From Acutalibacteraceae bacterium (GTDB taxonomy: Bacteria > Bacillota > Clostridia > Oscillospirales > Acutalibacteraceae), in NCBI GenBank assembly GCA_045656485.1, contig JAZORK010000080.1:1-54530 (forward strand): DNA of 54,530 bases, given 5' to 3'. This document shows, piece by piece, positions 5,952 to 54,530 of this stretch. A program made the position numbers and the translations under genes. Within the stretch, counting starts at the first letter, position 1; each line of letters starts with the position of its first letter. Under the pieces are notes generated by a model, which ran no database searches, was not told the DNA's origin, and saw only the letters and a program-made list of their open reading frames with translations.

Positions 5952-6788
5952 TCATTTGTTTTTATATTCTACATATTCTTCGAGGCACATCCCAAGGTCG
6001 TTTATTTCATAAGCTGCCTTTACACCCACAAAACGCCAGTGCCACGATTCGTAAATAACGCCTGTTTTTTCTTGCTTATCTTCAGCATAACGCATTATAA
6101 ATCCGTAATTCTTAGCATTTTCCTGCAACCATTTATAAGCCTTAGTTTCCTTGAATGAGTGATTAGCGCAGTTTATATCAAGCGCAAGGCCTGTATTGTG
6201 TTCACTTGTGCCCGGTCGTGCCACTATTGTTGCGGCAACGTCCTCTGCATTCTCTTTAGCTACACCGTTGTTTATTTGTTTTTGCACCTGTTTTTCAAAA
6301 AGCCACTTTTGTGTAGCGTAAGAACGGTAAGGCGACCAAACGCCAATATCAATACCATCTGCCCTTGCATCGTCAAGCATTTCTTGTAAATAGGGCCAAA
6401 TATCCTTATCTATTTGGGTAAGTGAGCCTTTAATATATTTTTTGGGAATTTCGGTTAAATTACCTTCGTAATCGTAATCTTCAGGTAATGGATTCCAACC
6501 GTTTACAAGGGTTAAATTTTCGAACTCAACATCCAAATCGTGCGGCATTTCTTGTGGGAGAGAAACTGTAACCTCACTCGAAGTTACGTCCTGCTCAGAA
6601 CTTTCCTCCTCGCTTGATTGCTCATCACTTTGGGTTATTTGCGAAGAGGAACTGTCGGTATTATTACTGTCTTTGCCCAATACCGAAACAAAATATATTC
6701 CCAACACCATAATCACAACTAAAACAATTACAGCAAGAATTAATCCCAAGGGGTTTTTTCTTTTATTATTTGCCATTTTAAACACCAC
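5952..6788 (-). CDS. VanY-type D-alanyl-D-alanine carboxypeptidase (peptidase M15B), membrane anchored
   Basis: N-terminal TM helix, a Ser/Glu-rich linker, and the Zn-binding motifs SEHNTGLALDI and ESWHWRFVG. The start is either GTG at 6788 or ATG at 6776. Confidence 0.8.
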   Translation of the reverse strand: MVFKMANNKRKNPLGLILAVIVLVVIMVLGIYFVSVLGKDSNNTDSSSSQITQSDEQSSEEESSEQDVTSSEVTVSLPQEMPHDLDVEFENLTLVNGWNPLPEDYDYEGNLTEIPKKYIKGSLTQIDKDIWPYLQEMLDDARADGIDIGVWSPYRSYATQKWLFEKQVQKQINNGVAKENAEDVAATIVARPGTSEHNTGLALDINCANHSFKETKAYKWLQENAKNYGFIMRYAEDKQEKTGVIYESWHWRFVGVKAAYEINDLGMCLEEYVEYKNK

Positions 6789-8593
6789 TAATCATCCAAT
6801 TTAAGCACTGCCATAAAGGCTTCTTGCGGCACTTCAACAGTACCTAAGCGGCGCATACGCTTTTTACCTTCTTTTTGCTTTTCAAGTAACTTTTTCTTAC
6901 GGGTAATGTCACCACCGTAGCACTTTGCAAGTACGTCTTTTCGCATAGCCTTTACAGTTTCTCGTGCAATAACCTTGCCCGAAACGGCAACCTGCACAGG
7001 CACTTCAAAAAGCTGTCTTGGAATATATTCCTTTAGCTTTTCGGCAATTTTACGAGCACGGGTATAAGAATTATCGGTATGAACAATGAAAGAAAGCGCA
7101 TCGACCATATCGCCTGCAAGTAAAACGTCAAGTTTCACAAGCTTAGATTTTTCATAACCCTTCATTTCGTAGTCGTAACTTGCATATCCACGTGTACGGG
7201 ATTTTAAAGCATCGAAAAAGTCGTAAACAATTTCGCCCATAGGCAAAATGTAGTGAATATCCACACGGTCACCCATATACTTCATATCGGTGTAAACACC
7301 ACGGCGTTCTTCACAAAGTTGCATAATTGTACCAACATATTCGCTTGGCGAATAGATGTGAACATCCGCCACAGGCTCTAACGCTTCGGCAATAATCGCA
7401 GGGTCGGGGTAGTTTGTGGGGTTGTCCACCGTGATAGTCTCACCACTGGTTAATGTAAACTTATATTCAACACTGGGGGCTGTGGTTACAAGGTCCAAAT
7501 TATATTCTCTTTCAAGTCTTTCTTGGATAATTTCCATGTGCAATAACCCCAAAAATCCGCAACGGAAACCAAAGCCTAAAGCGTTTGAAGTTTCAGGCTC
7601 GAAAAGAAGTGAAGCATCGTTAAGCTGCAATTTATCAAGCGCATCACGCAAATCGGGGTATTTTGCGCCGTCAGCAGGGTAAATACCACAGAATACCACA
7701 GGGTTTACCTTGCGGTAGCCTTCGAGTGCTTGCGGTGTAGGATTTTCAACTAAAGTGATAGTGTCACCCACACGAGCATCCGAAACGGTTTTAATAGAAG
7801 CCGCTAAATAGCCAACTTCACCTGCTTCTAAAACGTCGCAAGGCTCCATACACATAGCGCTTTTTCTACCGATTTCTACAGTATCAAAGGTAGCACCTGT
7901 CGCCATCATTTTGATAGTATCGCCCGATTTTAGCTTACCACTCATAACACGGAAGTAAACAATAACGCCCTTGTATGGGTCATAATAAGAGTCAAAAATA
8001 AGCGCCGAAAGTGGTGCTTCACGGTCACCCGTGGGGGCAGGAATTTCGGTAACGATTTTTTCAAGCACTTCTTCAATATTAACACCTGTTTTTGCCGAAA
8101 TTAAGGGTGCATTATCGGCAGGAATACCGATAACATCCTCAATTTCACCCTTAATACGCTCAGGGTCGGCAGAGGGAAGGTCTATTTTATTAATAACGGG
8201 TAAAATTTCAAGCCCGTGGTCAACCGCTAAATATGTGTTGGCAAGTGTTTGAGCTTCAATACCCTGCGAAGCATCAACAATAAGCACCGCACCCTCACAA
8301 GCCGCAAGTGAGCGTGAAACTTCATAGTTAAAGTCAACGTGACCGGGGGTATCTATTAAATTAAGCTCATACTGTTCGCCATCCTTGGCATTATAATAAA
8401 GGGTTACAGCGTGCGCCTTAATGGTAATGCCGCGTTCCCTTTCCAAATCCATACTGTCAAGAATTTGCTCCTCCATATCACGCTGTGCTACCGATTCGGT
8501 ATGTTCAAGCAAACGGTCAGCCAAAGTAGACTTGCCGTGGTCGATATGAGCTACAATACAAAAATTTCTTATTTTTTCAAGCGGAAATGACAC
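6788..8593 (-). CDS. lepA: Elongation factor 4 (LepA)
   Basis: 601 aa with the G-domain AHIDHGKST and DTPGHVDF and a LepA-specific C-terminus. GTG start with an AGGAGA RBS. Confidence 0.97.
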
Positions 8594-40467: not shown

Positions 40468-41367
40468 TTATTCAATTTCTATATTAATATCGCCGGTGGT
40501 AACCTTAATTTCACACTTACCGCCCGTGGTGGTTTGTGGAACACTAATATCACCCGTAGTGGCTTTTGTTACAAAAATCTTATCGGTTAGCAAACTACCC
40601 TTAACATCGCCTGTGGTTGCTTTAAGGTATAATTCCCCTGCATCACAACTGTCAAGAGTTATATCACCTGTGCTTCTTTTAACAAAAAGTTTTTCTTTCA
40701 CAATAACATTACTTAACCTAATATCACCCGTTGTGCCGTTCGACACCAAATTATCGCACTTAATATTACTTAATTTTATTACGCCTGTCGAGAGTGAAAG
40801 GTCGATTTGCTTTGCCGAAACATCGTTTAACTGCATATCACCCGTAGTGGTTTTTAAATTAACGTCATTAGTTATAGTAGCCGAAAAATCAATATCACCC
40901 GTGCTTATTGAAATTTGAGCGTTGCCGAATTTAAAATCCTTTGCCACCTTTACGTCGCCTGTGGTAGCCTTTACTGTTAAATCACCATATTCACCCTTAG
41001 GCATATAAACCGTAATTTTAGGTGTATTAAAATTAATGCCGATAAACCAATTTTTTATCTTGTCTTGAAGTTCAATTGTAAGAGTATCATTAACTACACT
41101 CACCGAATGGGTTGCATTTTTATATGCATAACATTCGACTGTGGTTTTTTTATTTTCGCTCGGTAAAAATTCAATATCCGCTGTATCGGTATCAAGAAGT
41201 ATATTCTTAAAATCTTCGGTTATTTCGTAAGACTTTGTAACATATTCTACCGTGGATAATCTTCTAAAATTCCATCCAAACATCGTCATCACTCCCACAA
41301 AAAGTATAGCACCGATCACTATTAAAGAAACGGCCACAATAATCCACGCTAAAGTTTTTCTAGACAT
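40468..41367 (-). CDS. DUF4097-type (LiaF/LiaG C-terminal-like 'putative adhesin') beta-helix repeat protein with an N-terminal TM anchor
   Basis: About ten degenerate repeats centred on (T/S)TGD(I/V). ATG at 41367 lies 8 nt after AAGGAG. Confidence 0.75.
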   Translation of the reverse strand: MSRKTLAWIIVAVSLIVIGAILFVGVMTMFGWNFRRLSTVEYVTKSYEITEDFKNILLDTDTADIEFLPSENKKTTVECYAYKNATHSVSVVNDTLTIELQDKIKNWFIGINFNTPKITVYMPKGEYGDLTVKATTGDVKVAKDFKFGNAQISISTGDIDFSATITNDVNLKTTTGDMQLNDVSAKQIDLSLSTGVIKLSNIKCDNLVSNGTTGDIRLSNVIVKEKLFVKRSTGDITLDSCDAGELYLKATTGDVKGSLLTDKIFVTKATTGDISVPQTTTGGKCEIKVTTGDINIEIE

Positions 41368-41965
41368 TACAATCACTCCTTTTAGCTATTCGATTTTTAA
41401 GAGATTTAATAATCTGATTTAAGAAAAGTATAACACCCTTTGTCGCAAGTTTGCAAAGCAAGAACAAAAGAATAGCAATTCCAAAACAAACAAGTGCTGC
41501 GCCAATCAAAAATAATCCCGATAGTACACTTTTACTGCTGATTAGCACACCACCAGCTACAATGCCGCCAAAGCCACAAGCCAAAACCGCCACAAAGGAA
41601 GCCCAAAAGCTTATAACAACCGCCCATAATGCCACATAAAACGATATTATCACCGCGAACAATGATACGCCCAAGGAAATCCAAATCGGCGAGCCTAATA
41701 CTAATAGCACAATCTCCAATGCGCTAATTCTTCTATTGCATTTAACCTTTTCTTTAACAAGCTTTGTTATAGGAGTATCGGCTATAATCGCTTCGGCGAT
41801 TTTTTCTACCGAACCCACCGCAGCTACTGCATCTTCTTCGGAAAGTCCATCTTCCATACGGTCATCTATCATTTCGCTGTAAAAGCTAATTTGTTCTTCT
41901 ATTTCGGCTTTTGGCAGACCACAAAGCCCATTTTCAAGATTTTTCAGAAAATCAATCTTAGTCAT
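41360..41965 (-). CDS. DUF1700-type membrane protein
   Basis: The N-terminus TKIDFLKNLENGLCGLPKAEIEEQISFYSEMIDD is typical of DUF1700. Three or four C-terminal TM helices follow. Confidence 0.7.
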   Translation of the reverse strand: MTKIDFLKNLENGLCGLPKAEIEEQISFYSEMIDDRMEDGLSEEDAVAAVGSVEKIAEAIIADTPITKLVKEKVKCNRRISALEIVLLVLGSPIWISLGVSLFAVIISFYVALWAVVISFWASFVAVLACGFGGIVAGGVLISSKSVLSGLFLIGAALVCFGIAILLFLLCKLATKGVILFLNQIIKSLKNRIAKRSDCNV

Positions 41966-42278
41966 TAGCGTCATCCCCCTTTGTCACAAACTTATATATC
42001 GCTAAAATTTCTTCCCAGTCGTTTTTAAAATCTTCGATTCTAGCGAGTCCCAAATCGGTAATATGGTAATATTTGCGTAATCTTCCGCCGTGCTCAGCCG
42101 TGCTGACCGTTAGCATATTCGCCGTTTCTAAACGCTTTAAAATTGTATAAAGTGTCGATTCCGACAGTTCAATATACGGCTTCATATCTTTGATAATCTT
42201 GTATCCATAGGATGCCTCGTCCTTAATGGCTGATAGCACACACACATCCAAAAGCCCACGCTTTAATTGAATATCCAT
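41958..42278 (-). CDS. PadR family transcriptional regulator
   Basis: 106-aa winged helix with the pattern ASYGYKIIKDM...SESTLYTILKRLE...YYHIT. Confidence 0.9.
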   Translation of the reverse strand: MDIQLKRGLLDVCVLSAIKDEASYGYKIIKDMKPYIELSESTLYTILKRLETANMLTVSTAEHGGRLRKYYHITDLGLARIEDFKNDWEEILAIYKFVTKGDDAND

Positions 42279-42838: not shown

Positions 42839-43936
42839 TCACAATTTCGCTATTTTTTCAAGCTGCTCTTTTATTTGAATATTTTGCGGACAAATTTTTT
42901 CACACTTGCCGCATTTAATGCAGTCGCTCGCTGTTCCCTTATCGGTTGGGAAGGTAGCTTTTGCTTCGTCACCTGTAATTTGCGCCGAAAGAACTTTATT
43001 ATAAGCCGAAAAAAGTGTTGGAATAGGAATATTTTTAGGTCAAACTTCGGTGCAGTAAGCACACGCAGTACAAGGGATTTGACTAACTTGGCGTATAATT
43101 TCACGCACACGGTCACATGCTTCAAATTCCCTTTGGGTAAAGGATACAAATGGGTCAAAAGTATTTAGGTTATCCATCATCATATCCATACTACCCATGC
43201 CCGAAAGCACCATAAACACATTAGGGTAGCTTGCGGCATAACGCAAAGCATAGGAAGCATAACTGCCGCCCTTTAATTCATCAAGCACCTGTGCTGCCTT
43301 ATCGGGCAGGTTTACAAGTGCGCCGCCCTTTACAGGCTCCATAACAATAACCTTTTTACCGTGCTTTACCGCCACATCATAACAGGCTTTGCTTTGCACG
43401 CTGGGGTCGTCGTAATCAAGGTAGTTGATTTGCAACTGCACAACTTCTATAAAGGGCTGTTCAGTAAGAATCATATCCAAAATATCGGCAGTATCGTGAA
43501 AAGACATTGCAATATGCTTAATTTTACCCTGCTCTTTGAGTTTTTTTACAATCTCAAAGGTATTACATTCCTTGTGCTTGGGGTAAGATTTTCGGGTTAA
43601 ACAATGGAAAAGATAAAAATCAAAATATTCCACACCACAAAGCTTTAACTGACTTTCAAAGAGGGGAACAATATCCTCTTCTTTTTCAAAATACCAGTCA
43701 GACAATTTGTTAGCCAAAATAAAATCTTCACGTTTATATCTGGCGCTTAAACAGTCACGTATAGCGGTTTCACTTTTACCACCAATATATCCGTGGGCGG
43801 TGTCAAAATAATTAAACCCTGCGGCTATAAATGAATCTATCATACGGTTAAATTCGGCATAATCTACATTTTCGCCATCCATTTTAAGACGCATACAACC
43901 AAAGCCAAAATTTTTCTTAATTTCAGGAAAAGACAT
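42839..43936 (-). CDS. Aldo/keto reductase fused to a 2x[4Fe-4S] ferredoxin domain, with an in-frame TGA (43040-43042) at the 4th Cys position of the first cluster motif
   Basis: The AKR core occupies ORF 43040-43936. My hand translation continues in the same frame after the TGA: CTACAYCTEV[TGA]PKNIPIPTLFSAYNKVLSAQITGDEAKATFPTDKGTASDCIKCGKCEKICPQNIQIKEQLEKIAKL*. Confidence 0.7.
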
Positions 43937-43993: not shown

Positions 43994-44027
43994 GAAAAAA
44001 GATGCCCTACTAAAAAGCAGAGCATCT
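43994..44027 (-). terminator. Rho-independent terminator after gltS
   Basis: In minus-strand RNA, AGAUGCUCU/AGGGCAUCU (9 bp, one G-U) followed by U6. Confidence 0.75.
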
Positions 44028-44040
44028 AAAATTCAAAAGA

Positions 44041-45486
44041 TTATGTTTCGTCGGTCCAAACAGGGACAAATGTGTTTTTATACTTCTTTTTGAATATTTT
44101 TCGGCGGAACAAATACACCGTATAAGCAAACCACAAAACAAAGAAAATAGCGCAGGCGATCAAAGCGTGTGTTGTAGAGTTTGCCGCAAAGCTTAACAAA
44201 AACAGAAGGGGTGCAATCATTACCATTGCAGGAAAATTAGAAAGAATATACAAGCTTGAAGTCGGGGTGCGAAGACCAGGGTCGATTTCCTTCATTAAAA
44301 TCATACCGTTAGATGCAGTACCCGTCATAGTGCCGTAACACATTAAGAAAAGCTCGTGTTCAAAGCCTTTAAAACATTCTTTAGAAACCAAACGAATATA
44401 TATGTAGGTAACTACAGCACCAACCACACTTAAAATCACAACAGGTAAAATGTAATTTTTAATGTCGTTAATTTCAATAGCAGCAACGCCGGCAACAATC
44501 ATTAGGTCAAACGAAAAGCCTGAAACACGATCCATTTGATAGTTGTTAATATAATCACGGCTCATTATATTGCTTTTGCGAAGCCTTTTTACCACAAATT
44601 TAATAAGCATAGCCGCAAGTGAAGCCCAAAGGAAGTTAAAGCCCCAAGCAATGCTGTTTGTAAACTTAGAAAGAATACCCAACAAATACATAAGTCCAAA
44701 AGAAAGTGCATAAGCCAAGGCAACAAAGCCCATTTGCAGGGTGAATTTGTCTACCGATTCGTTATCGGGAATTTCAAATCCGTTAGGATTACTTTGGTCA
44801 ACGATTTCGCCGTCGGGTCTAGCTTTACGAACCTGCAAAGCGCCACGCTTTTTATAAATATTGATATACAAAATACCAAATACCGATGCCACAACAAAAC
44901 CGATAGAAGCCAACGACAAACCAAAACTGCCGTTACCTGCAAACTGTGCCGCAGGAGTATTTGTAAAGTTGATGTCCCAACTAAGTGCGTTACCGGGACC
45001 TTGACCGTAAGCCAAGGGAAGAATTAAACCACAAATATATGAAATAACCTTTTTGCCGTAACGTGTAAGAGCAAAAAGAATAAGTGTTATGCCAAGACCC
45101 ACAAAGGCTTGCAGCATGTAGCAACCGCCCTGCAAAGCACCAAATTCTATAACCTGTGTGCCGTTGGTTTTGTGGGTGCTTTTTTCGGTTTTAAGGCTCA
45201 TAGCCGCAAAGCCAATAGCCAAGCAATGATAGGTAATAACCTGCATAAGACGGTTATCAACAAGAACTAAACCGAATTGCTTTGTAATAAAATTAACGAG
45301 CAACAATAATCCACCGCCCAAAAGTGCCGACGGAATCAAGCATTTGCGCAATAGTGGAATAGTTCTTCTAAGAATATTACCTAACATTAAAAACATTAAC
45401 AGTAATCCAAGCTGAACCAAAAACGCCCAAACCGCATTATAGTTGGCCATGGTAAAATCCCAACTAGCTGTATAATCCATAGACAA
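44041..45486 (-). CDS. gltS: Sodium/glutamate symporter (GltS/ESS family)
   Basis: 481 aa with about 12 TM segments. The N-terminal pattern and overall architecture resemble GltS. Confidence 0.75.
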   Translation of the reverse strand: MSMDYTASWDFTMANYNAVWAFLVQLGLLLMFLMLGNILRRTIPLLRKCLIPSALLGGGLLLLVNFITKQFGLVLVDNRLMQVITYHCLAIGFAAMSLKTEKSTHKTNGTQVIEFGALQGGCYMLQAFVGLGITLILFALTRYGKKVISYICGLILPLAYGQGPGNALSWDINFTNTPAAQFAGNGSFGLSLASIGFVVASVFGILYINIYKKRGALQVRKARPDGEIVDQSNPNGFEIPDNESVDKFTLQMGFVALAYALSFGLMYLLGILSKFTNSIAWGFNFLWASLAAMLIKFVVKRLRKSNIMSRDYINNYQMDRVSGFSFDLMIVAGVAAIEINDIKNYILPVVILSVVGAVVTYIYIRLVSKECFKGFEHELFLMCYGTMTGTASNGMILMKEIDPGLRTPTSSLYILSNFPAMVMIAPLLFLLSFAANSTTHALIACAIFFVLWFAYTVYLFRRKIFKKKYKNTFVPVWTDET

Positions 45487-45691
45487 ATACCTTCTTTATA
45501 AAAAAGATTATGTATGTTTACGTAAATTTAATTACACATATACCTAAAAATTATATCACAAATTACAAATTCCTGCAATATTTATTATTTTTTTACAAAT
45601 TGAGATATAAAAACGGACTTTATGCAAATTACACTCCACTATATAACAAGGTTTGTGCATACAAAATATTCCTTAAAATTTAAAATATTTT

Positions 45692-45745
45692 AAAAAAGAA
45701 AAAGCCCCGTTAGGAATGCAGAAATTACTACGTTCCTAACGGGGT
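45692..45745 (-). terminator. Rho-independent terminator after fucO
   Basis: 13-bp stem ACCCCGUUAGGAA/UUCCUAACGGGGC followed by UUUUUCUUUUUU on the minus strand. Confidence 0.8.
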
Positions 45746-45791
45746 CTTCGCAACTTTATTTAATCTGATATTCAATCAAAAATATATAAAA

Positions 45792-46940
45792 TTACATTAA
45801 CTTAAGATAAAGTTCTTTAATTTCTTCAACGCTTGTATCGCGGGGGTTACCAGGACGGCAAGCATCGTCAAATGCGGATTGTGAAAGGAAGTCAACGTCT
45901 TCAGCCTTAACAATTTCCTTAAGGTCAGCAGGGATGCCAACGTCGATTGACAATTGCTTAACAGCTTCGATAGCAGCCTTTCTTGCATCTTCAAGGCTCA
46001 TAGCATCTACGCCTTCAACGCCCATAACTTTAGCGATTTCTCTGTACTTTTCGCCGGTTTCGGGAGCGTTGTATTCCATAACGGTAGGAAGAATGATAGC
46101 ATTTGCAACACCGTGAGGAGTATCATACAAAGCGCCGAGGGGGTGAGCCATAGAGTGCACGATACCAAGACCTACGTTACTAAAGCCCATACCTGCGATG
46201 TATTGACCGAGAGCCATACCTTCGCGGCCAGCGTCGGTGTTTTCAACAGCGCCACGGAGAGATTTAGCAATAAGTTCAATAGCTTTTAAGTGGAACATAT
46301 CGCTCATTTCCCAAGCGCCCTTAGTAATGTAACCTTCAATAGCGTGGGTTAAAGCGTCCATACCGGTAGCAGCGGTAAGCGACTTCGGCATAGAAGCCAT
46401 CATATCGGGGTCAACGATAGCAACAACGGGAATATCGTGAACGTCTACGCAAACCATCTTGCGATTGTTTTCAGCATCAGTGATAACGTAGTTAATTGTA
46501 ACTTCAGCAGCAGTACCAGCGGTGGTAGCAACAGCGATGATAGGAGTGCAAGGATTCTTTGTGGGAGCAACGCCTTCTAATGAACGAACGTCAGCGAATT
46601 CGGGGTTGGTGATGATAATACCAATTGCCTTAGCAGTATCCATAGAAGAACCGCCGCCGATAGCCACGATACAGTCAGCACCGCTTGCCTTGAAAGCAGC
46701 AACACCGTTTTGAACGTTTTCAATTGTGGGGTTGGGCTTAATATCGCTGAAAATTTCATAAGCGATGTTAGCGTTATCAAGAATATCGGTTACCTTTTTG
46801 GTAACTTCAAACTTGATAAGATCAGGGTCGGAGCAAACGAAAGCCTTTTTAAAGCCTCGAGCCGTGATTTCGGTAGCGATTGCGTTAATCGCACCTTTGC
46901 CGTGGTAGCTGGTTTCATTGAGTACAAATCTGTTTGCCAT
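45792..46940 (-). CDS. fucO: Iron-containing alcohol dehydrogenase, lactaldehyde reductase (1,2-propanediol oxidoreductase) type
   Basis: 382 aa, collinear with E. coli FucO as I recall it (MANR..LNET, GGGS..D.AKAIG, TTAGTAAEVTINYVITD, GVANAI). Confidence 0.88.
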   Translation of the reverse strand: MANRFVLNETSYHGKGAINAIATEITARGFKKAFVCSDPDLIKFEVTKKVTDILDNANIAYEIFSDIKPNPTIENVQNGVAAFKASGADCIVAIGGGSSMDTAKAIGIIITNPEFADVRSLEGVAPTKNPCTPIIAVATTAGTAAEVTINYVITDAENNRKMVCVDVHDIPVVAIVDPDMMASMPKSLTAATGMDALTHAIEGYITKGAWEMSDMFHLKAIELIAKSLRGAVENTDAGREGMALGQYIAGMGFSNVGLGIVHSMAHPLGALYDTPHGVANAIILPTVMEYNAPETGEKYREIAKVMGVEGVDAMSLEDARKAAIEAVKQLSIDVGIPADLKEIVKAEDVDFLSQSAFDDACRPGNPRDTSVEEIKELYLKLM

Positions 46941-46958
46941 AATGAAAAACTCCTTTTA

Positions 46959-48371
46959 TTATATATTTTCAATTTTAATTAAAGACGTATTACCTGAGGT
47001 ACCACTTGTGTCGCCGCCTGTGATAATAATTTTATCACCCTTTTCAAGGGAAAGTTCCTGCTCGGCAATTTTCTTTGCGGTATAAAACAAAACGTCCGTT
47101 GAGCTGAAACGTTCACACATTGCAGGGATAACGCCCCAAGAAAGAGCAAGTCTTCTCCAAGTTCGTTCATCGGTTGTAAGACCAAGAATAGGAACAGGAG
47201 AACGGAAACGGGATACCATTCGAGCAGTCATACCCGAAAGCGAACAAGCAACGATTGCTTTGGCGTTAAGGTCAATTGCCATTCCGCAGGTAGAATGAGA
47301 GATAGCATCCACCGAATCTCTGATTTCAAAAGCTGCATTATGGAAGCGCTTATTATAGTGGATATTACTTTCGGTAGTTTCGGCAATTTCAGCCATTGTT
47401 TTTACCGATTCAATAGGATATTTGCCTGCGGCGGTTTCGCCCGAAAGCATAATAGCACTTGTGCCGTCATAAACCGCATTAGCAACGTCGGATATTTCGG
47501 CTCTGGTAGGACGAGGGTTAGAAATCATAGATTCAAGCATTTCGGTTGCGGTAATAACCCTTTTACCAAGCAAGCGGCACTTTGTTATCAACTTTTTCTG
47601 AATTGCAGGCAACATTTTGAAGGGTATCTCAACACCCATATCTCCACGGGCAATCATAATACCGTCGCACTCTTCGCAAATTTCTTCGATATTATCAAAA
47701 CCCGACTGATTTTCAATTTTAGCAATAAGCTCAATATCGTCGGCATTAAGCTCTTTAAGATATTCGTGAACGTCAATAAGGTCTTGCTTGTTTGATACAA
47801 AGGAACAAGCGATATAATCCACATCATTCTGAACGCCGAAAGCAATGTCTTTCTTGTCTTGTTCGGAAAGGTATTCTTGTTTCATTACTTTACCAGGAAA
47901 GCTCATACTCTTTCGATCCGAAAGCTCGCCGCCAACTACAACGGTGGATTCAATGTTTGCTCCGTCAATATTTACAACCTCAAATGTTAAAAGACCATTG
48001 TTAAGCAAAATGGTGTCGCCCACAGAAAGTTCGCTCGGCAAATTCTTATAACTTACCGAAACCTTGGTTTCATCACCTTCAACTTCGTCGGTGGTGAAGG
48101 TGAATTTATCTCCATCATTTAAGGTGATTTTATGATTGCGGAAGGTTTTAATTCTATATTCGGGGCCTTTGGTATCAAGCATAATAGCAATGGGCATTTT
48201 AAGGTCGGAACGAACCTTTTTAACAAGGTCAATTCTTCTCTGATGATCTTCGTGAGTATTGTGAGAAAAATTAAGTCTTGCCACGTTCATACCGGCTTTG
48301 CAAAGACCGGTTATTATTTCTTCAGTCTCACTTGCAGGACCTATTGTGCAAACAATTTTTGTTTTACGCAT
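46959..48371 (-). CDS. pyk: Pyruvate kinase
   Basis: 470 aa: MRKTKIVCTIGPAS, MNVARLNFSHN, MIARGDMGVEIP. Confidence 0.95.
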   Translation of the reverse strand: MRKTKIVCTIGPASETEEIITGLCKAGMNVARLNFSHNTHEDHQRRIDLVKKVRSDLKMPIAIMLDTKGPEYRIKTFRNHKITLNDGDKFTFTTDEVEGDETKVSVSYKNLPSELSVGDTILLNNGLLTFEVVNIDGANIESTVVVGGELSDRKSMSFPGKVMKQEYLSEQDKKDIAFGVQNDVDYIACSFVSNKQDLIDVHEYLKELNADDIELIAKIENQSGFDNIEEICEECDGIMIARGDMGVEIPFKMLPAIQKKLITKCRLLGKRVITATEMLESMISNPRPTRAEISDVANAVYDGTSAIMLSGETAAGKYPIESVKTMAEIAETTESNIHYNKRFHNAAFEIRDSVDAISHSTCGMAIDLNAKAIVACSLSGMTARMVSRFRSPVPILGLTTDERTWRRLALSWGVIPAMCERFSSTDVLFYTAKKIAEQELSLEKGDKIIITGGDTSGTSGNTSLIKIENI

Positions 48372-48382
48372 ATTTAACCTCC

Positions 48383-48435
48383 AAAAAAAGTGCCTACTCT
48401 TTACACGAAAACATAAAAACGCAAAGAGCAGGCAT
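48383..48435 (-). terminator. Strong rho-independent terminator closing the hydrogenase operon, directly abutting the pyk RBS
   Basis: In minus-strand RNA, UGCCUGCUCUUU/AAAGAGUAGGCA (12 bp) followed by U7 and then immediately GGAGG (48382-48378) and the pyk ATG (48371). Confidence 0.8.
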
Positions 48436-48445
48436 AAACAAAAAA

Positions 48446-49873
48446 CTATTTTAAAATAGCAACAGCATCGCCGATAGTCTTTTCTAAAGCCTCTCTGCCA
48501 TACTTATCTACCTCGGATTTGTTTTTCTCACCGTGGGTCAGGCAACCTGCACCACCGATACAACCTCCGACACAAGCCATACCTTCAATGAAGTTGGCAT
48601 CGAGCACATTTTTGCTCTTTTTAAGCAGTGCCATACGGCATTCTTCGATACCGTCGCAAGCCACAGCCTTTAAGTCAAAATCAATACTTTGTTCTTTAAG
48701 ACCCTGCGCAACAGCATCAGAAAGACCACCGCTGCGAGCAAAAATTCTGCCGAAATAAGAAGCGTTATCAAGCACATCTTCACTGAGAGTTGTAATATCA
48801 ATGTCCTTGCTATCATAGAGGGCTTGCAGTTCTTCAAAAGTCATAACCGCATCAACATACGGTTTTACACTTTCAAGCTGTGCTTCTGCCTTTTTAGCAG
48901 TACACGGACCTATAAATACAACCTTGGCAGTTTTATCGGTACTCTTGATATACTTTGCTAATGCTGCCATTGGTGAAAGGTTATGTGATACTAAAGGCAA
49001 TAAATCGGGAAAAGCCGATTTAATATACTGCACAAAAGCAGGACAGCAAGAACTCGTTAAAAATCCCTTTTCAGCAAGTTCCTTCGATTCGGATTGTGCC
49101 ACCATATCAGCACCGAGTGCCGCTTCAATAACGGTAAAGAAGCCAAGTTCCTTAAGACCGGTGATAACCTGACCTAACTTTGCATAGGTAAACTGACTTG
49201 AAATAGAAGGTGCTACAATTGCATATACCTTATACTTAGTATTATACTCGCTTTTTTTAATAAGGTCAATAACATTCAGTATATAAGACTTATCCATAAT
49301 AGCGCCAAAAGGACATTGATAAACGCAAGCACCGCACTGAATACATTTGTTGTTATCAATAGCAGCGGCATTATCATCATTGATTGAAATTGCCTTTACC
49401 TTGCAAGCAATTTGACATGGGCGCTTACGGTTGATAATTGCTGAATATGGGCAAACCTTTGCACACTGACCGCATTCTACACACTTTGATTTATCAATAT
49501 GTGCTACGTGGTTATGGTCAAATGAAATAGCCCCTCTTCTACAAACGTCTTCGCAACGGTGTGCTAAACAGCCGCGGCAAGAGTCAGTTACTTCATAACC
49601 GGCGGCAGGACATTCATCACAAGCAATATCAATAACCTCGATAACATTAGGGTTATCTGTATCGCCACCCATAGCAATCTTAACACGCTCGCCTAAAATC
49701 GCACGCTCTTTATAAACACAACAACGCATTGTGGAAGTTTTGCCAGGCACGATCATTTTGGGGATTTCAATAATATTTTGAAGGAGAGTATCATTCCAAG
49801 CCTCGCGTGCCACTTCACGCAATACCTTATATTTCAGGTGTTGTACTTTAGTATCAAATTTTCTTACTCCCAT
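48446..49873 (-). CDS. [FeFe]-hydrogenase (group B-like, with several N-terminal Fe-S cluster motifs)
   Basis: H-cluster motifs TSSCCPAF, GPCTAKKAEA and EGMACVGGCIGGAG, plus two CxxCxxCxxxCP ferredoxin motifs and additional Cys clusters. Confidence 0.85.
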   Translation of the reverse strand: MGVRKFDTKVQHLKYKVLREVAREAWNDTLLQNIIEIPKMIVPGKTSTMRCCVYKERAILGERVKIAMGGDTDNPNVIEVIDIACDECPAAGYEVTDSCRGCLAHRCEDVCRRGAISFDHNHVAHIDKSKCVECGQCAKVCPYSAIINRKRPCQIACKVKAISINDDNAAAIDNNKCIQCGACVYQCPFGAIMDKSYILNVIDLIKKSEYNTKYKVYAIVAPSISSQFTYAKLGQVITGLKELGFFTVIEAALGADMVAQSESKELAEKGFLTSSCCPAFVQYIKSAFPDLLPLVSHNLSPMAALAKYIKSTDKTAKVVFIGPCTAKKAEAQLESVKPYVDAVMTFEELQALYDSKDIDITTLSEDVLDNASYFGRIFARSGGLSDAVAQGLKEQSIDFDLKAVACDGIEECRMALLKKSKNVLDANFIEGMACVGGCIGGAGCLTHGEKNKSEVDKYGREALEKTIGDAVAILK

Positions 49874-49885
49874 ATCAATTTCTCC

Positions 49886-51058
49886 TTAAAAATAACTCAC
49901 TTTTATTTTCTTGCCCATTTTTTTGAGGCACTTAGACAGTTCCTCAACCAAATTCATTTTAATATTAAAGTTTATCGGCAAATCGGGGTTTTGATGAGCA
50001 GGATTTACCGCTCTGCCTACATAGAAATTAATGTCAGTCGCTTCCTCAAATAGCAAACGGCAGATAAGAGAAGCACCGTCATGCTTAAAGCTCCAATGCT
50101 CATAATGCTTGTTTTCACCAAGATAATCCCTTGCATATTCAAGCACTTTGTTTACGGTAATAACACCTTCGGTAACAAGATCTACACCTTCAATTTCGGC
50201 AATTGGGGGCACATCACTCATTTCAAAATTAAGGCTTGCTTTAAGAGGCTTGCGCAAAAATTTTGCCGCAATAGAAGATGTTGTTCCACCACAAATAATG
50301 TGTTTGCCTTCCTTTGAGAAGAAGAGCGACATCATACGGTCGGCATCGTCACGATTTGAAGGTGGCCCGAATAGCATATTCATCGGTTCTCTTTTTCTGA
50401 TACGAACAACGCAAGCAGTTGCATCATCACCTGGTTTCTGACCGTAAAGCTTATCGCATTCGTCTACAAGCATTGTAGATAATGTTTTGGCTGTATATCC
50501 TGCGTGAGAAAGTGCTTCCATAAAGCCGGCAATATCTTCACGCTTCCAACCGAAGTTATAAGCCGTGCCGATACCTGCATGAGGACAACCGTCACTCATA
50601 GCAACAAAAATATCATTCTCCTGCAATTTGATAACCGATTTGTAAATCTTTTTACCGCCGATATGCATTTCTGTTTTGGGGTAATCCCAAACCTTTTCAT
50701 CACGGATAACAATAGCATGAGGATTGTCGTATTGTATAAGCTCAGCTACCTGATTGTTTTTAAGATGGATAATAGTAAAGGTAGAGTACGCAACCCCACG
50801 AACCGAACAAACAGGTAATGTTGCAGCGATAGTTTCAACACATTCTTCAAGACTTAAACCCTCTGCCAACATTGTTGAAATGATTTTTGAGGTAAGGGTT
50901 GAAAGAATACTCGCTTTAACACCACTTCCAAGTCCGTCCGACAGCACAATAACTGTAGAATCATCACTAGGTTCCACAATGTCTACATGGTCGCCGCAAA
51001 GCTGCTCGCCGTAATGATTTATACTTTTGTATCCTATATCAGCACATAAATCATTCAT
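49886..51058 (-). CDS. PP2C/SpoIIE-family serine phosphatase with a ~150-aa C-terminal domain of unknown function
   Basis: The N-terminal half CGDHVDIV...LSDGLGSGVKASILS...MSDG is SpoIIE/PP2C-like. Its start overlaps the hydS stop by 8 nt. Confidence 0.85.
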   Translation of the reverse strand: MNDLCADIGYKSINHYGEQLCGDHVDIVEPSDDSTVIVLSDGLGSGVKASILSTLTSKIISTMLAEGLSLEECVETIAATLPVCSVRGVAYSTFTIIHLKNNQVAELIQYDNPHAIVIRDEKVWDYPKTEMHIGGKKIYKSVIKLQENDIFVAMSDGCPHAGIGTAYNFGWKREDIAGFMEALSHAGYTAKTLSTMLVDECDKLYGQKPGDDATACVVRIRKREPMNMLFGPPSNRDDADRMMSLFFSKEGKHIICGGTTSSIAAKFLRKPLKASLNFEMSDVPPIAEIEGVDLVTEGVITVNKVLEYARDYLGENKHYEHWSFKHDGASLICRLLFEEATDINFYVGRAVNPAHQNPDLPINFNIKMNLVEELSKCLKKMGKKIKVSYF

Positions 51059-52730
51059 CTTGGATAGACTCCTTTAATTTGGCGAGTGCAATTTTGGTTT
51101 CCGCTGCGGTTTCACCGAGGAGGGATGCGATTTCCTGAACGATACGCATCTGTTTGTCAACAACCTTATCGGCAACCTCTATGGTCTGTCGGCTTATATT
51201 TTCTTTCTTTTCACGCTCATTTTGCTCATCGGTAATATCACGCATAATAGCAATAAGAAGGTGTGAATCCTTATCATAAACTACCGACTGCTCAACAAAG
51301 CGTTTATATTCAGCGAGATACACTCGCTCATCACGTACATCACGGCCTGTTCTTAAAACATTCATAAAAACAGTAGGATCAAGAATACGGATAACCTGAT
51401 CGCCAAGAATATCATTAGCGGAACGGATATTCATAAGTTTTCTTGCGGCAGTATTGATTTGCTGAACCTCAAGATTTTCATTAAGCACAATAAGTCCATT
51501 TGGAGAATTGTTAACAATGGTATCGGAAAAGCTTTCAGCCTTATCCTTAAGGAAGGGCAGACACATGGAAATCTCCGCCTTGCCCTGACAAATAGCGATT
51601 GCTTTTTCACGGCAGGTATTATATCCGCAAGAACCACAATTAAGTTCCTGAGAAGGCTTAAATTTACCCATTTGACGAAGTATATTTTGGATTTCCATAT
51701 CTGAAGGCATTTGAGAGCGTTGTTCAATAAACTCAAAGCTCTTTTTAAGCTCAACAGCCTTAAACTGAGATACCTCAAAATCCTTTGTTCCTGCATATTC
51801 AGAAATAGCAATATAATCCTTAACAGCAGAAGAACGATGGTATTTTTCCATAACAGGACCGCCTACACAGCTACCAATACAAGCGGACATTTCGATAAAG
51901 CATTTATGAACCTTACCGTTTATAATATCTTTAATAGCAGCAATACAATTGTCAACACCATCAAGCGCAAGATAAGTATAGCCAGGTGTATTCTGCGCCA
52001 TTGTTTTAAGAACACCGCCGGTTGTCGGGAAGAAACGTGCACGTGAACAAACATCGTTGTCGACTTCCTGTTCTAATTCAATTTTTTCCGCATTCAACCA
52101 TTCTGTAAGTTCTTCAAAGGTAAGCACAGCATCCACAATGCCGTCGTAGTGCTCAGCTTCATCCTTTTTAGCAACGCAAGGGCCGATAAATACGGTCTTT
52201 GCATTGGGATATCTATTTTTAATATCCTTGCAATGCGCCTGCATTGGTGATACAACATCAGCCAAATATTCAAGCGCTGCAGGATAATGTTTCTGAATCA
52301 ATAGGTTAATAGAATGACAACAGGAAGAGATAATAACATCTCTTTCATCCTCTTGGAGCATTCTTTCATATTCTGTTTTAACAATAGTGGCTCCGATAGC
52401 GGTTTCCTCAACATCATAAAAGCCCAACTTCTTTAAAGCTCTGCGCATAGCGTTGATACCAACACCTTCATAGTTTGCAATAAAAGAAGGGGCTAGACTT
52501 ACAATTACAGGATCTCCGCTTTGAAGAAGAACCTTTACTTTTTCGGTTTCGTCAACAATCTCCTTAGCATTCTGAGGACATACAACGAAGCATTGGCCAC
52601 AGAGAATACATTCATTGCCAATAATATGTGCCTGGTTTCCCGAAAAGCGAATAGCTTTAACGGGACAATGGCGAATACATTTATAACAGTTTTTACAGTT
52701 TGATTTTTTAAGAGTCAAACAATTTGGCAT
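51051..52730 (-). CDS. hydS: Sensory-type [FeFe]-hydrogenase (HydS/HfsB-like, group C) with a C-terminal PAS domain
   Basis: N-terminal 2x CxxCxxCxxxCP. Variant H-cluster motifs SSCCHS, GPCVAKKDEAE and EMSACIGSCVGGP. An extra CGSCGYNTC...C cluster precedes a PAS-like region and a C-terminal coiled coil. Confidence 0.85.
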   Translation of the reverse strand: MPNCLTLKKSNCKNCYKCIRHCPVKAIRFSGNQAHIIGNECILCGQCFVVCPQNAKEIVDETEKVKVLLQSGDPVIVSLAPSFIANYEGVGINAMRRALKKLGFYDVEETAIGATIVKTEYERMLQEDERDVIISSCCHSINLLIQKHYPAALEYLADVVSPMQAHCKDIKNRYPNAKTVFIGPCVAKKDEAEHYDGIVDAVLTFEELTEWLNAEKIELEQEVDNDVCSRARFFPTTGGVLKTMAQNTPGYTYLALDGVDNCIAAIKDIINGKVHKCFIEMSACIGSCVGGPVMEKYHRSSAVKDYIAISEYAGTKDFEVSQFKAVELKKSFEFIEQRSQMPSDMEIQNILRQMGKFKPSQELNCGSCGYNTCREKAIAICQGKAEISMCLPFLKDKAESFSDTIVNNSPNGLIVLNENLEVQQINTAARKLMNIRSANDILGDQVIRILDPTVFMNVLRTGRDVRDERVYLAEYKRFVEQSVVYDKDSHLLIAIMRDITDEQNEREKKENISRQTIEVADKVVDKQMRIVQEIASLLGETAAETKIALAKLKESIQDE

Positions 52731-52736
52731 ATCCCG

Positions 52737-52991
52737 TTACTCCCTTTCGATTTTACTTAGCACATTATCTTGGAAAAATTCTTTAAAATTCTCCCTTGTA
52801 ATGCCGACATGAATGTCATCATCAACCTGTACCGTAACACCGACACGATTACACTTGCCGATACAAAAACTACCGGCAAGTGTAACTTGATTTTCAAGAT
52901 GATATTCATTAACGGCTTTTTGCAGAAGTTCTACAATTTCGGGCGAACCCTTAAGGTGACAAGAACTACCCACACAAACCTGAATAATCAT
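52737..52991 (-). CDS. Thioredoxin-like [2Fe-2S] ferredoxin (NuoE/HndA-like small protein)
   Basis: 84 aa with the Cys pattern CVGSSCHLKG ... FCIGKCNRVG. Confidence 0.8.
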   Translation of the reverse strand: MIIQVCVGSSCHLKGSPEIVELLQKAVNEYHLENQVTLAGSFCIGKCNRVGVTVQVDDDIHVGITRENFKEFFQDNVLSKIERE

Positions 52992-52996
52992 ATTAT

Positions 52997-53236
52997 TTAT
53001 ACCTTCGCTTTAATATTCTTTTCAAAAAAGTCTTGCACATCTTCAGGGGTTACGGAATGGAATGCGTCATCTACGGTAACACACACACCCTGCTGACATT
53101 TACCCATACAGAAAGTGCCGCCGAGTTCCACCTTATCACCGAGATTATTTTCAGCAATAAGGTACTGAAGCTGTTCTACTACCTGACGTGAACCTTTAAT
53201 ATGACATGAACTACCTATACAAACTGTAACTTTCAT
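52997..53236 (-). CDS. Thioredoxin-like [2Fe-2S] ferredoxin, tandem paralogue
   Basis: 79 aa with the Cys pattern CIGSSCHIKG ... FCMGKCQQG. Confidence 0.8.
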   Translation of the reverse strand: MKVTVCIGSSCHIKGSRQVVEQLQYLIAENNLGDKVELGGTFCMGKCQQGVCVTVDDAFHSVTPEDVQDFFEKNIKAKV

Positions 53237-53258
53237 TATGTTTTCCTCCCGATTATCC

Positions 53259-54008
53259 TTATTCGTAATCTACAACGTTTACCCAAGAGAGCAAGAATTC
53301 GCGCTCTTTTTCATTGCCCTTAACCGACTGAGAAGCGGCTACAATGGGCATCCACTTTTGAACGTACTGCTTTGCAGTATTACTTTTTTTGCAGAACAAA
53401 TCGAGATACTTTTTAGCACCGTCGATATTGCCATTCAACCAAAAGAGCAAGTAGGTACGAGCCGCATCAGCAGAAGCATTACCCTGTGTTGCGTGAGACC
53501 AGTCGATAATGTAAGGTGTACCGTCTTCGGTGATGATAATGTTTGAAGGGTTAAAGTCGCCGTGGCAAACCTTATTATGCTTAGGCATACCTTCAAGGCG
53601 AGTATGCAAATCATAACGGGTAGTAGCGTCAAGCTCTGTGGAAGCAATTTTAACACTCATTTTATCCTTAAGTTTGTTAAGTAACGGAGATTTCTTATCG
53701 TGAACTGAGAGCTGCAAGTCAACGAGCAATTCGATATATTCATCCTTTTTCTCAGCATTTTCTTCCATAAGCTGAGCTAATGTTTTGCCCTTGATATACT
53801 CAGATACGATTGCCCATTTACCGTCAACCATGGTAACTTCCAAAACTTTTGGAATATTAAGACCGGTTTCTTCGATTCTTGCTTGATTTAATGCTTCGTT
53901 CAAAACATCGGCTTTAGAATAATCAGCGTTAAAAACCTTAACGCATCTATCACCATCACGGTAGATAGTTTTATTATTTCTTACTGCGATAACTCTATCA
54001 AGTTTCAT
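53259..54008 (-). CDS. Small protein kinase-fold protein (APH/Bud32/eukaryotic-like Ser/Thr kinase type)
   Basis: 249 aa with a VKVF Lys, the catalytic loop CHGDFNPSNIII, and the metal-binding IIDWSHA. No sensor or TM domain. RBS AAGGAGG. Confidence 0.75.
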   Translation of the reverse strand: MKLDRVIAVRNNKTIYRDGDRCVKVFNADYSKADVLNEALNQARIEETGLNIPKVLEVTMVDGKWAIVSEYIKGKTLAQLMEENAEKKDEYIELLVDLQLSVHDKKSPLLNKLKDKMSVKIASTELDATTRYDLHTRLEGMPKHNKVCHGDFNPSNIIITEDGTPYIIDWSHATQGNASADAARTYLLFWLNGNIDGAKKYLDLFCKKSNTAKQYVQKWMPIVAASQSVKGNEKEREFLLSWVNVVDYE

Positions 54009-54022
54009 CTTTATTTCCTCCT

Positions 54023-54299
54023 TAGGGTGACAAGAGTTAAATTTGTCACGCCTGACAAATAATAATTTTATGTTTTTTCTTGCCTCATCATTTGTAATAC
54101 AATAGTATTACTGCATTCTTCGGCTTCGCCCTACCAAAAAATTATTGATTTGGCAGGTCGGAGAATTTCTCTCTGACACCTTTTTTGAAAGGCGCAGCGT
54201 GAAATTTATAGTAAGGCTATTTGCCTTACAAGAATGAACGCAAGAAAGGCGGAAAAGGTGTCGAGTGAAATCGTAACCGATTCAACTCTTGTCACCCTA
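54023..54299 (-). repeat. 277-bp unit bounded by perfect 16-bp terminal inverted repeats, highly structured as RNA (candidate cis-regulatory RNA or MITE)
   Basis: TAGGGTGACAAGAGTT (54023-54038) and AACTCTTGTCACCCTA (54284-54299). At least five internal helices are found by eye (see findings). Confidence 0.6.
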
Positions 54300-54530
54300 T
54301 GCCTTCTTACCCTTGCGGTAGGTAACTTTTACATCGTCAACCTTAGCGGTAGCCGCAACATCAGCTGCGGTGGGCTTCTTGGTTTCTACGAAGTGCTTGC
54401 CGTAGTAAGCATTGAGATACATTTGCTTAATTTCGCTCATAAGCGGATAACGGGGGTTAGCGCCTGTGCATTGGTCGTCAAATGCTTGTTCAACCATTTC
54501 ATCAATGTTTTCAAGGAATGCATTTTCATC
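54297..54530 (-). CDS. adhE: Bifunctional aldehyde/alcohol dehydrogenase AdhE, C-terminal end (5' part lies outside the window)
   Basis: AFDDQCTGANPRYPLMSEIKQMYLNAYYG matches the AdhE C-terminus (E. coli: AFDDQCTGANPRYPLISELKQ). The frame is open to the window edge. Confidence 0.9.
   Translation of the reverse strand, partial: DENAFLENIDEMVEQAFDDQCTGANPRYPLMSEIKQMYLNAYYGKHFVETKKPTAADVAATAKVDDVKVTYRKGKKA

Follow-up and report, generated by a model that had tools for sequence, protein, structure and literature searches.

Gene clusters that unite a PAS-containing [FeFe] hydrogenase (HydS or HfsB), a serine phosphatase and a second hydrogenase are thought to sense H2 and to steer fermentation between ethanol and H2, and the example from Ruminococcus albus 7, the hydS-hydA2 cluster, was reportedly treated by Zheng et al. 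in 2014. The cluster considered here lies on the minus strand, at positions 54008..48446, of a 54,530-nt stretch from an uncultured Acutalibacteraceae bacterium of the gut or rumen (contig JAZORK010000080.1 of assembly GCA_045656485.1; the whole stretch is referred to as the window), and it is a further instance of this known, partly characterised system. The sensing of H2 and the shift between acetate plus H2 and ethanol underlie interspecies hydrogen transfer, the methane output of the rumen and the engineering of ethanol-producing strains, and signalling downstream of HydS or HfsB has been an open question since 2009-2014. The window itself adds one more orthologue, and the comparative results supply concrete candidates for the missing steps.

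The transcripts of the eight-gene cluster of R. albus fall 90- to 111-fold when a partner organism consumes H2 (Greening et al. 2019, PMC6776011; PMC10838669), and the HydDB authors place the R. albus HydS in group C (PMC6776011). In Thermoanaerobacterium saccharolyticum, deletion of hfsB raises hydrogenase activity and ethanol yield, an effect that requires hfsC and hfsD, and by itself alters adhE expression and product yields; deletion of hfsC resembles deletion of hfsD, with hfsD mRNA only slightly lower, and rex expression tracks ethanol yield (PMC5707799). Expression of hfsD alone reproduces the hfsB-deletion phenotype. These genetics fit a scheme in which HfsB inhibits HfsC and HfsC activates HfsD, partly at a post-transcriptional level. 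How the putative sensory hydrogenases of groups C and D pass on their signal is still treated as unresolved in a paper of 2026 (PMC13104023).

Correspondence with the Ruminococcus albus 7 cluster

The R. albus 7 locus, on plasmid pRUMAL01, was found by a tblastn search of PLSDB with the window phosphatase (81% identity). Its order is LysR, 160 nt, Rex, 16 nt, adhE, 15 nt, a phosphotransferase (249 aa), two ferredoxins, HydS, an 8-nt overlap, a SpoIIE phosphatase, 16 nt and HydA2. The six open reading frames (ORFs) read in the window all run in one direction on the minus strand and encode, in turn, a kinase-fold protein (249 aa; 53259..54008; PF01636), a thioredoxin-like [2Fe-2S] ferredoxin of the type found in kinase modules (Fd1, 79 aa; 52997..53236; PF01257), another of the type found in HydS modules (Fd2, 84 aa; 52737..52991; PF01257), a putative H2-sensing [FeFe] hydrogenase of the HydS/HfsB type, recognized by domains and motifs (559 aa; 51051..52730), an HfsC-like phosphatase (390 aa; 49886..51058) and a group B [FeFe] hydrogenase of the ferredoxin type (475 aa; 48446..49873; TIGR04105), the orthologue of R. 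albus HydA2 and of HfsD. The genes are separated by 22, 5, 6 and 12 nt, except that the phosphatase gene overlaps the end of the HydS gene by 8 nt, so the tight packing of six co-directional genes (gaps of 5-22 nt, or overlap) reported in a preliminary description of this DNA is borne out in coordinates, gaps and overlap alike.

Apart from the phosphatase, identity to the R. albus 7 proteins is 77% for the kinase, 85% for Fd1, 61% for Fd2, 71% for HydS and 78% for HydA2; gene order, spacing and the 8-nt HydS/phosphatase overlap are shared, and all three motifs of the window HydS recur in that of R. albus. Judged by these comparisons of sequence, the window cluster is the orthologue of the pRUMAL01 rex-adhE-phosphotransferase-Fd-Fd-hydS-SpoIIE-hydA2 cluster. 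The likeness to hfsABCD and to the R. albus HydS-HydA2 unit that the preliminary description had drawn thus holds, the locus being collinear with pRUMAL01 and matching hfsB, hfsC and hfsD by published description. The system itself is not undescribed, being already represented by the R. albus cluster (PMC6776011) and by HydDB class C3; the missing output, which the preliminary description called undescribed, is acknowledged in the literature. The window differs from R. albus in that no LysR or Rex gene is visible (it ends inside adhE), in a structured insert of 270 nt between adhE and the kinase gene, and in the pyruvate kinase and iron-containing alcohol dehydrogenase (Fe-ADH) genes that follow the terminator. 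The truncated 3' end of adhE, encoding a bifunctional aldehyde/alcohol dehydrogenase, occupies 54297..54530 on the minus strand at the window edge, and the last 77 residues of its product match the AdhE (900 aa) of a close relative (L001) at 82% identity.

Pfam models divide HydS into two Fer4 ([4Fe-4S]) domains, Fe_hyd_lg_C (PF02906, 170 bits), a 4-Cys cluster (PF04060, 37 bits), a PAS domain and a C-terminal helix. The PAS score of 21.5 bits is just under the Pfam cut-off of 22.6, and the assignment is backed by significant PAS matches in homologues and by alignment to a PAS-only protein discussed below. The motifs SSCCHS, GPC and MSAC (MSACIGSC) are all present, as had been described, and the four Cys residues that ligate the H-cluster are kept; Gly and Ser stand at the positions of CpI M353 and M497, as do G177 and S267 in the Thermotoga maritima enzyme (TmHydS). 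HydS also retains the proton-relay Cys (CpI C299 position), which is kept in only ~17% of sensory enzymes (PMC10055695). A search of the PDB gave no close sequence homologue of HydS. The M2f architecture, together with the Met-to-Gly and Met-to-Ser changes published for TmHydS, upholds the group C-type assignment made earlier. HydDB class C3 is defined as "phosphatase-linked (putative), undetermined role", and the overlap of the HydS gene with a PP2C gene is the linkage to a Ser/Thr phosphatase by which C3 is recognized; HydS would thus fit group C3.

The downstream hydrogenase scores 569.6 bits against the NCBIfam model TIGR04105 for group B1 monomeric [FeFe] hydrogenases (cut-off 450). It has the motifs TSSCCP and MAC, the latter retained as the preliminary description stated, and also GPC (FIGPCTAKK), with Gly at the CpI M353 position. 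Since GPC is found in this enzyme too, that Gly alone is not diagnostic of a sensor, and its earlier use as such a mark has to be given up. The R. albus HydA2 is classed as group A1 in PMC6776011; NCBIfam puts the window orthologue in group B1.

Gene neighbourhoods and two proposed arms of the cluster

In the GTDB species representatives scanned, 80 loci were found with a phosphatase at least 80% identical to that of the window, mostly in rumen and gut metagenome-assembled genomes (MAGs) of Acutalibacteraceae and Oscillospiraceae. More diverse phosphatases were taken from a search of 1.84 billion representative sequences, two other homologue searches having given only proteins at least 84% identical, and distant contexts were read from exact look-ups of phosphatase homologues (33-55% identity) and from PLSDB. 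Neighbourhood conservation had been put forward as a check on the preliminary description, and the same gene order does recur in dozens of species-representative genomes, so the arrangement is not due to chance. The identical 8-nt HydS/phosphatase overlap (tblastn offset -5) is found in every close locus showing both genes, a group B hydrogenase follows the phosphatase in 62 of 66 loci, and adhE precedes the cluster in 25 of the 49 with room for it. Across the close loci no protein of the cluster is better conserved than the phosphatase (median identity 83%), and the kinase ranges from 38 to 92%.

The HydS and phosphatase genes overlap or sit 10 nt apart also in Anaerotruncus, Synergistaceae, Clostridium, a Bacillota MAG (L088) and Monoglobus. 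The pair and its ferredoxin are divergent from hydCBA in Anaerotruncus, near hydAB in Clostridium pascui, and alone, with no regulator gene nearby, in Synergistaceae; L088 has Fd-HydS-phosphatase-hydCBA as one co-directional, closely spaced array, Monoglobus has Fd-HydS-phosphatase-group B hydrogenase, and a further locus (L089) reads Rex-LysR-FeADH-HydS-phosphatase. The universal core consists of a small thioredoxin-like ferredoxin, HydS and the phosphatase, without the kinase. As a separate observation, an HPr phosphocarrier gene in Monoglobus pectinilyticus (L092, 10083-10340) is convergent to, and ~130 nt past, the Fd-HydS-phosphatase-hydrogenase-Fd unit, a single case; HPr-Ser-P is a PP2C substrate in some Firmicutes.

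In one locus (L090, 4687-14647) the phosphatase follows a thioredoxin-like ferredoxin (98 aa) and a PAS-only protein (173 aa), in the surroundings of CODH (Prismane), HydC/HydB-like proteins and ACS, that is, in a CODH/ACS-type cluster. This suggests that the PAS-phosphatase module serves non-H-cluster sensors too, perhaps for CO or redox state. The PAS-only protein aligns to HydS residues 405-559 and shares the C-terminal helix of HydS (QEIAxLLGETxAETK). The last ~25 residues of HydS are invariant in eight sequences from different phyla and the PAS part is only ~25-35% identical; because the helix is invariant while the PAS domain diverges, it is the best candidate for the contact of the sensor with the phosphatase.

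The phosphatase matches the SpoIIE family (PF07228) with 57 bits over residues 32-220 only. Its PP2C domain, of the SpoIIE/RsbU type (50399..51058), has a Foldseek match to SpoIIE (5mqh, E = 2.5e-15), and 41 diverse sequences all have the metal-binding residues D23, D41, D156 and D211/D212. In the AlphaFold2 model the protein has two domains (predicted local distance difference test score, pLDDT, 90; predicted template-modelling score, pTM, 0.90) with no low-confidence linker, and the PP2C fold begins at residue 4, without an N-terminal regulatory segment of its own. The C-terminal domain (C-domain; 49886..50398) is family-specific and measures ~170 aa, slightly more than the ~150 aa (49886-50350) first proposed, and it is as hard to assign as was then stated: none of the 26 members scanned matched a Pfam family, Foldseek gave no match at E <= 0.001 in the PDB or BFVD, and a PDB sequence search returned only SIS-type proteins with E > 0.3. 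Modelled alone it has a Rossmann-like alpha/beta fold (pLDDT 90), with weak likeness (template-modelling score <0.41) to MGS, UbiX, the CODH/ACS N-terminal domain and SLOG/Rossmann nucleotide-binding proteins, and no STAS protein was among the top 50 fold matches. Its conserved motifs are GPP, (V/I)CGG(T/S)(T/S), IPP, G(I/V)DLVTEG, DGAS, VGxAxNPAH and GK. The search of representatives gave 1,074 clusters at 50% identity, nearly all full-length members being 383-404 aa long with the same PP2C plus C-domain architecture. The C-domain is a widespread family of its own, with neither a Pfam model nor a significant PDB fold match. The name 'TusB/DsrH' that one source gives to one homologue was unsupported by the fold search. 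An MGS-like protein is encoded directly before the kinase in one relative (L041, 6528-6890); hhalign of the C-domain with an MGS-like neighbour was negative.

The kinase matches the APH family (PF01636) with 54.8 bits (cut-off 23.2) and also, all weakly, the RIO1, Bud32 and choline-kinase models, the RIO1/Bud32-like matches lying over the catalytic loop; its best PDB sequence match is a choline kinase. The 52 orthologues compared (39-92% identity) conserve residues K24, E38, H149, D151, N156 and D169, and the catalytic Lys, the HxDxxxxN loop and the metal-binding Asp expected of APH and eukaryotic-like kinases are all present, with neither a glycine-rich loop, as read from the sequence, nor an activation segment. 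We regard it as a probable phosphotransferase of an atypical, APH/RIO/Bud32-like kinase fold whose substrate class may be either protein or small molecule. Of 65 close loci, 47 have it and 18 lack it, as do Monoglobus and each of the six distant loci read that have a HydS- or PAS-phosphatase pair. The kinase is lineage-restricted, occurring in Ruminococcus/Acutalibacteraceae-type clusters and in stand-alone modules.

These stand-alone modules read LysR-kinase-Fd-Cdomain (L094, 4060-6489), LysR-FeADH-Rex-kinase-Fd-Cdomain (L095/L096, 2003-6480) and LysR-kinase-Fd-Cdomain followed by NfnAB-like genes (L097, 4060-6504), with genes that overlap or nearly touch; no HydS, PP2C domain or hydrogenase was found in these three contexts from three lineages. 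Orthology links the kinases of these modules to that of the window, at 39-55% identity and with every catalytic residue invariant, and their LysR proteins to the LysR of the R. albus cluster (41-67% identity). Stand-alone C-domain proteins are 159-167 aa long and form multi-member clusters of constant length, with all motifs kept at ~40% identity. The ferredoxins divide in the same manner: both carry CX4C...CX3C and match PF01257, and Fd1 is 49-65% identical to the ferredoxins that follow the kinase in the LysR-kinase-Fd-Cdomain modules and 38-43% to HydS-module ferredoxins, while Fd2 is closest, by a small margin over the other type, to the ferredoxins preceding HydS in Monoglobus, L086 and L088 (40-44%). 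Among close loci the kinase and LysR genes occur together in 32 and are both missing from 16, with the kinase only in seven and LysR only in two (Fisher p = 4.5e-7, uncorrected for ancestry). Taken together, the stand-alone modules, the grouping of Fd1 and Fd2 and the kinase/LysR co-occurrence let the six-gene cluster be read as what looks like a merger of two arms that share the C-domain. One arm, Fd2-HydS-PP2C::Cdomain, is the universal core, in which the sensor and phosphatase genes are translationally coupled; the other, kinase-Fd1, is elsewhere accompanied by a stand-alone C-domain protein behind a dedicated LysR and often Rex. The kinase/phosphatase 'pair' of the preliminary description is thus better described as two modules joined via a shared domain, the kinase being no fixed partner of the phosphatase and going instead with Fd1, LysR and the stand-alone C-domain.

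The kinase could also be a small-molecule phosphotransferase, in which case it, Fd1 and the Rossmann-like C-domain would make up a short pathway for an enzymatic conversion or for the handling of a cofactor, and not a protein-phosphorylation switch. The APH family assignment, the choline kinase match and the missing glycine-rich loop and activation segment agree with this, as do the glycine-rich loop and conserved polar motifs of the C-domain and its weak likeness to the nucleotide- or flavin-binding UbiX, MGS and SLOG; however, in the main architecture the C-domain is fused to a protein phosphatase with an intact catalytic site, a transcription regulator goes closely with the kinase, and the kinase has RIO/Bud32-like matches as well, and we consider such a pathway quite unlikely. 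A bolder possibility is that the C-domain is a signalling hub common to both module types, either a STAS-like phospho-switch or a ferredoxin-docking sensor of redox state or ligand: an H2-controlled PP2C and a ferredoxin-linked kinase would set the hub, and the hub would control the dedicated LysR of the adhE and hydrogenase genes, in a partner-switching-like circuit built from non-canonical parts. This we offer as a speculation.

Regulators and a proposed path from H2 to gene expression

In many relatives an ORF of ~207 aa lies 20-60 nt upstream of the cluster and encodes Rex (PF06971 + PF02629), and an ORF of ~305 aa farther upstream encodes a LysR-family regulator. Rex is so placed in 18 of 54 relatives, and LysR and/or Rex are found upstream in 38 of the 54 loci for which 2 kb or more of upstream DNA can be seen. 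A LysR protein, with or without Rex, is therefore the probable DNA-binding protein associated with the cluster. The statement that the operon has no DNA-binding protein is accurate within the window, by tblastn; because the window ends inside adhE, the absence reflects, at least in part, where the window is cut, LysR/Rex standing upstream in the 38 relatives and in R. albus. No STAS protein, HATPase_c anti-sigma kinase or sigma factor is among the domains of the six proteins or of the neighbours read, in agreement with the preliminary description. A locus without LysR and Rex (L026) has an L-lactate dehydrogenase gene, ldh, divergently upstream (6713-7660, Pfam-confirmed), and ORFs that match it by size and position only are found in L023, L024 and L028.

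The reading of the whole that we favour, with some confidence, is that of an R. albus-type C3 H2 sensor combined with a group B ferredoxin hydrogenase behind adhE, composed of the two arms described above and working in four steps. In the first, H2 would bind to a slow H-cluster in HydS, for which Fd2 would serve as electron partner. The state of HydS would then pass by way of its C-terminal cluster, the PAS domain and the invariant helix to the PP2C phosphatase, so that the two proteins would act as do RsbP and other PAS-linker-PP2C phosphatases, but split over two chains. The phosphorylation state of a target would be set by the opposed actions of this phosphatase and of the atypical, ferredoxin-linked kinase; the C-domain that both arms share, or a protein docked by it, is the leading candidate. 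The output would be transcription of adhE...hydA2 via the associated LysR and/or Rex, possibly with a post-transcriptional activation of hydrogenase as in the T. saccharolyticum genetics. The transcript response and the mutant genetics that bear on the output are results from other organisms, and the remaining steps we infer.

Several points weigh against this scheme. A route through the C-terminal cluster of HydS is doubtful by analogy, since the C-terminal cluster of the group D enzyme TamHydS is not reduced by H2 (PMC13104023). The rigid packing of the C-domain on the PP2C domain in the AlphaFold2 model disfavours the C-domain as a substrate of the PP2C domain of the same chain. The kinase, missing from most lineages with the HydS-phosphatase core, cannot be a general antagonist of the phosphatase, and its fold (APH/RIO-like, no activation segment) suits a small-molecule kinase equally well; the proposed substrates of both enzymes are candidates. 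The kinase/LysR co-occurrence statistic ignores shared ancestry, neither Rex nor LysR gave a tblastn match in the window, and the closest relatives with visible upstream DNA (L001 and L002) have a homoserine transsuccinylase gene instead.

Rex alone could moreover account for H2-dependent transcription through the NADH/NAD+ ratio. If Rex, perhaps with LysR, carries out the regulation in this way, HydS, the phosphatase and the kinase would be co-regulated passengers with another local role, such as fine-tuning or maturation of a redox chain. The position of rex as first gene of the R. albus unit and close upstream of the cluster in the 18 relatives, and the tracking of ethanol yield by rex expression in T. 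saccharolyticum, are in keeping with this; but deletion of hfsB alone shifts adhE expression and product yields, many loci carry the sensor core without rex, and the Rex-box consensus is not enriched in the window (16 matches against 14.4 expected), so that we regard it as very unlikely.

The unit might, alternatively, be mainly catalytic and regulate itself as an Hfs-type hydrogenase, HydS, the ferredoxins and the group B enzyme handling electrons and the phosphatase (with the kinase, where present) toggling the hydrogenase post-translationally, so that a transcriptional output is unneeded. The gene next after that of the phosphatase, within one operon, always encodes the redox enzyme (the group B hydrogenase in the window, HydCBA in L088 and L090), several lineages have no regulator gene nearby, the hfsC deletion mimics the hfsD deletion with hfsD mRNA little changed, and the window HydS keeps its proton-relay Cys. 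Against these stand the ~100-fold change in transcripts of the whole R. albus cluster, the slowness of the characterised HydS enzymes, the LysR and Rex genes that accompany the cluster in most relatives and the existence of LysR-kinase-Fd-Cdomain modules without any hydrogenase. We think a purely self-regulating unit unlikely, and return to the sensor with a transcriptional output, for which the comparisons offer candidates that can be tested in R. albus, which is culturable, or in the genetically tractable Thermoanaerobacterium: the dedicated LysR, the unannotated domain that occurs in both arms, and the invariant Thr-rich C-terminal helix of HydS.

Flanking features and comparison with described systems

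The region between adhE and the kinase gene (54009..54296, minus strand) is 288 nt long, compared with 20 nt in L001 and 15-40 nt in most other relatives; the preliminary description was right to place adhE upstream, and the close adjacency implied by 'directly downstream of adhE' does not hold in the window. The difference is an insert of ~270 nt, bounded by the perfect inverted repeat GGGTGACAAGAGTT, whose upstream arm overlaps the adhE stop codon and whose downstream arm abuts the ribosome-binding site of the kinase gene. The insert contains the palindrome TTTGTCAGGCGTGACAAA, and the spacer RNA folds at -104 kcal/mol (z = -9.6); no Rfam match was obtained at E <= 1 across 44000-54530. Among 87 loci examined the only other copy is on a MAG contig of the same species (L004, 1545-1845, 97% identity); the window contains the insert just once, and two scans of metagenome contigs of the Joint Genome Institute (JGI) gave no copy. 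These counts (a single copy in the window, one other among the 87 loci, none in the JGI contigs) speak against a miniature inverted-repeat transposable element (MITE); the insert may have arisen in the manner of a MITE, or it may act as a structured RNA by which adhE is uncoupled from the sensor genes.

At the other end, a terminator-like hairpin with a 15-bp stem followed by U7 (48383..48434, minus strand; -21 kcal/mol, z = -6.6 on folding) lies after the second hydrogenase gene and is probably the 3' end of the operon. Downstream of it, on the same strand, are the pyruvate kinase and Fe-ADH genes, which end at a second strong terminator-like hairpin (45692-45749, minus strand). Both hairpins have loops of >8 nt, which places them outside the consensus terminator scan, and were found by reading and folding the sequence. 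Farther along lie a gene for a symporter-like membrane protein (44041-45486), and an HAAS/DUF4097 pair and an aldo/keto reductase (40468-41974 and 43040-43936) that appear unrelated to the cluster.

Compared by published descriptions only, the hfsABCD cluster of T. saccharolyticum and T. thermosaccharolyticum has the PAS hydrogenase HfsB, the serine phosphatase HfsC and the HydA2-like HfsD in the same order as the window, and a regulatory link to adhE; as described, it differs in having no kinase gene and in not being adjacent to adhE. TmHydS (group C, M2f) and the window HydS share the two N-terminal [4Fe-4S] clusters, the H-domain, the C-terminal 4-Cys cluster and the PAS domain, with Gly at CpI M353 and Ser at CpI M497, whereas at the proton-relay position (CpI C299) TmHydS has Ala and the window HydS has Cys. 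With RsbP, RsbU and SpoIIE the window phosphatase has in common the PP2C fold and metal site, and the arrangement resembles partner switching in that a PAS sensor with a helical segment stands just before the phosphatase and a kinase of opposing function is encoded nearby. Unlike those systems, the sensor in the window is a separate polypeptide, there is no STAS protein, HATPase_c kinase or sigma factor, the kinase is APH/RIO-like and the phosphatase has an extra, new C-terminal domain. The [NiFe] HoxBC-HoxJ-HoxA system of Cupriavidus necator (formerly Ralstonia eutropha) is built from proteins unrelated to those of the window and signals by a histidine kinase/response regulator relay, but its logic is alike: a slow hydrogenase serves as H2 sensor and controls the expression of hydrogenase genes via phosphorylation.

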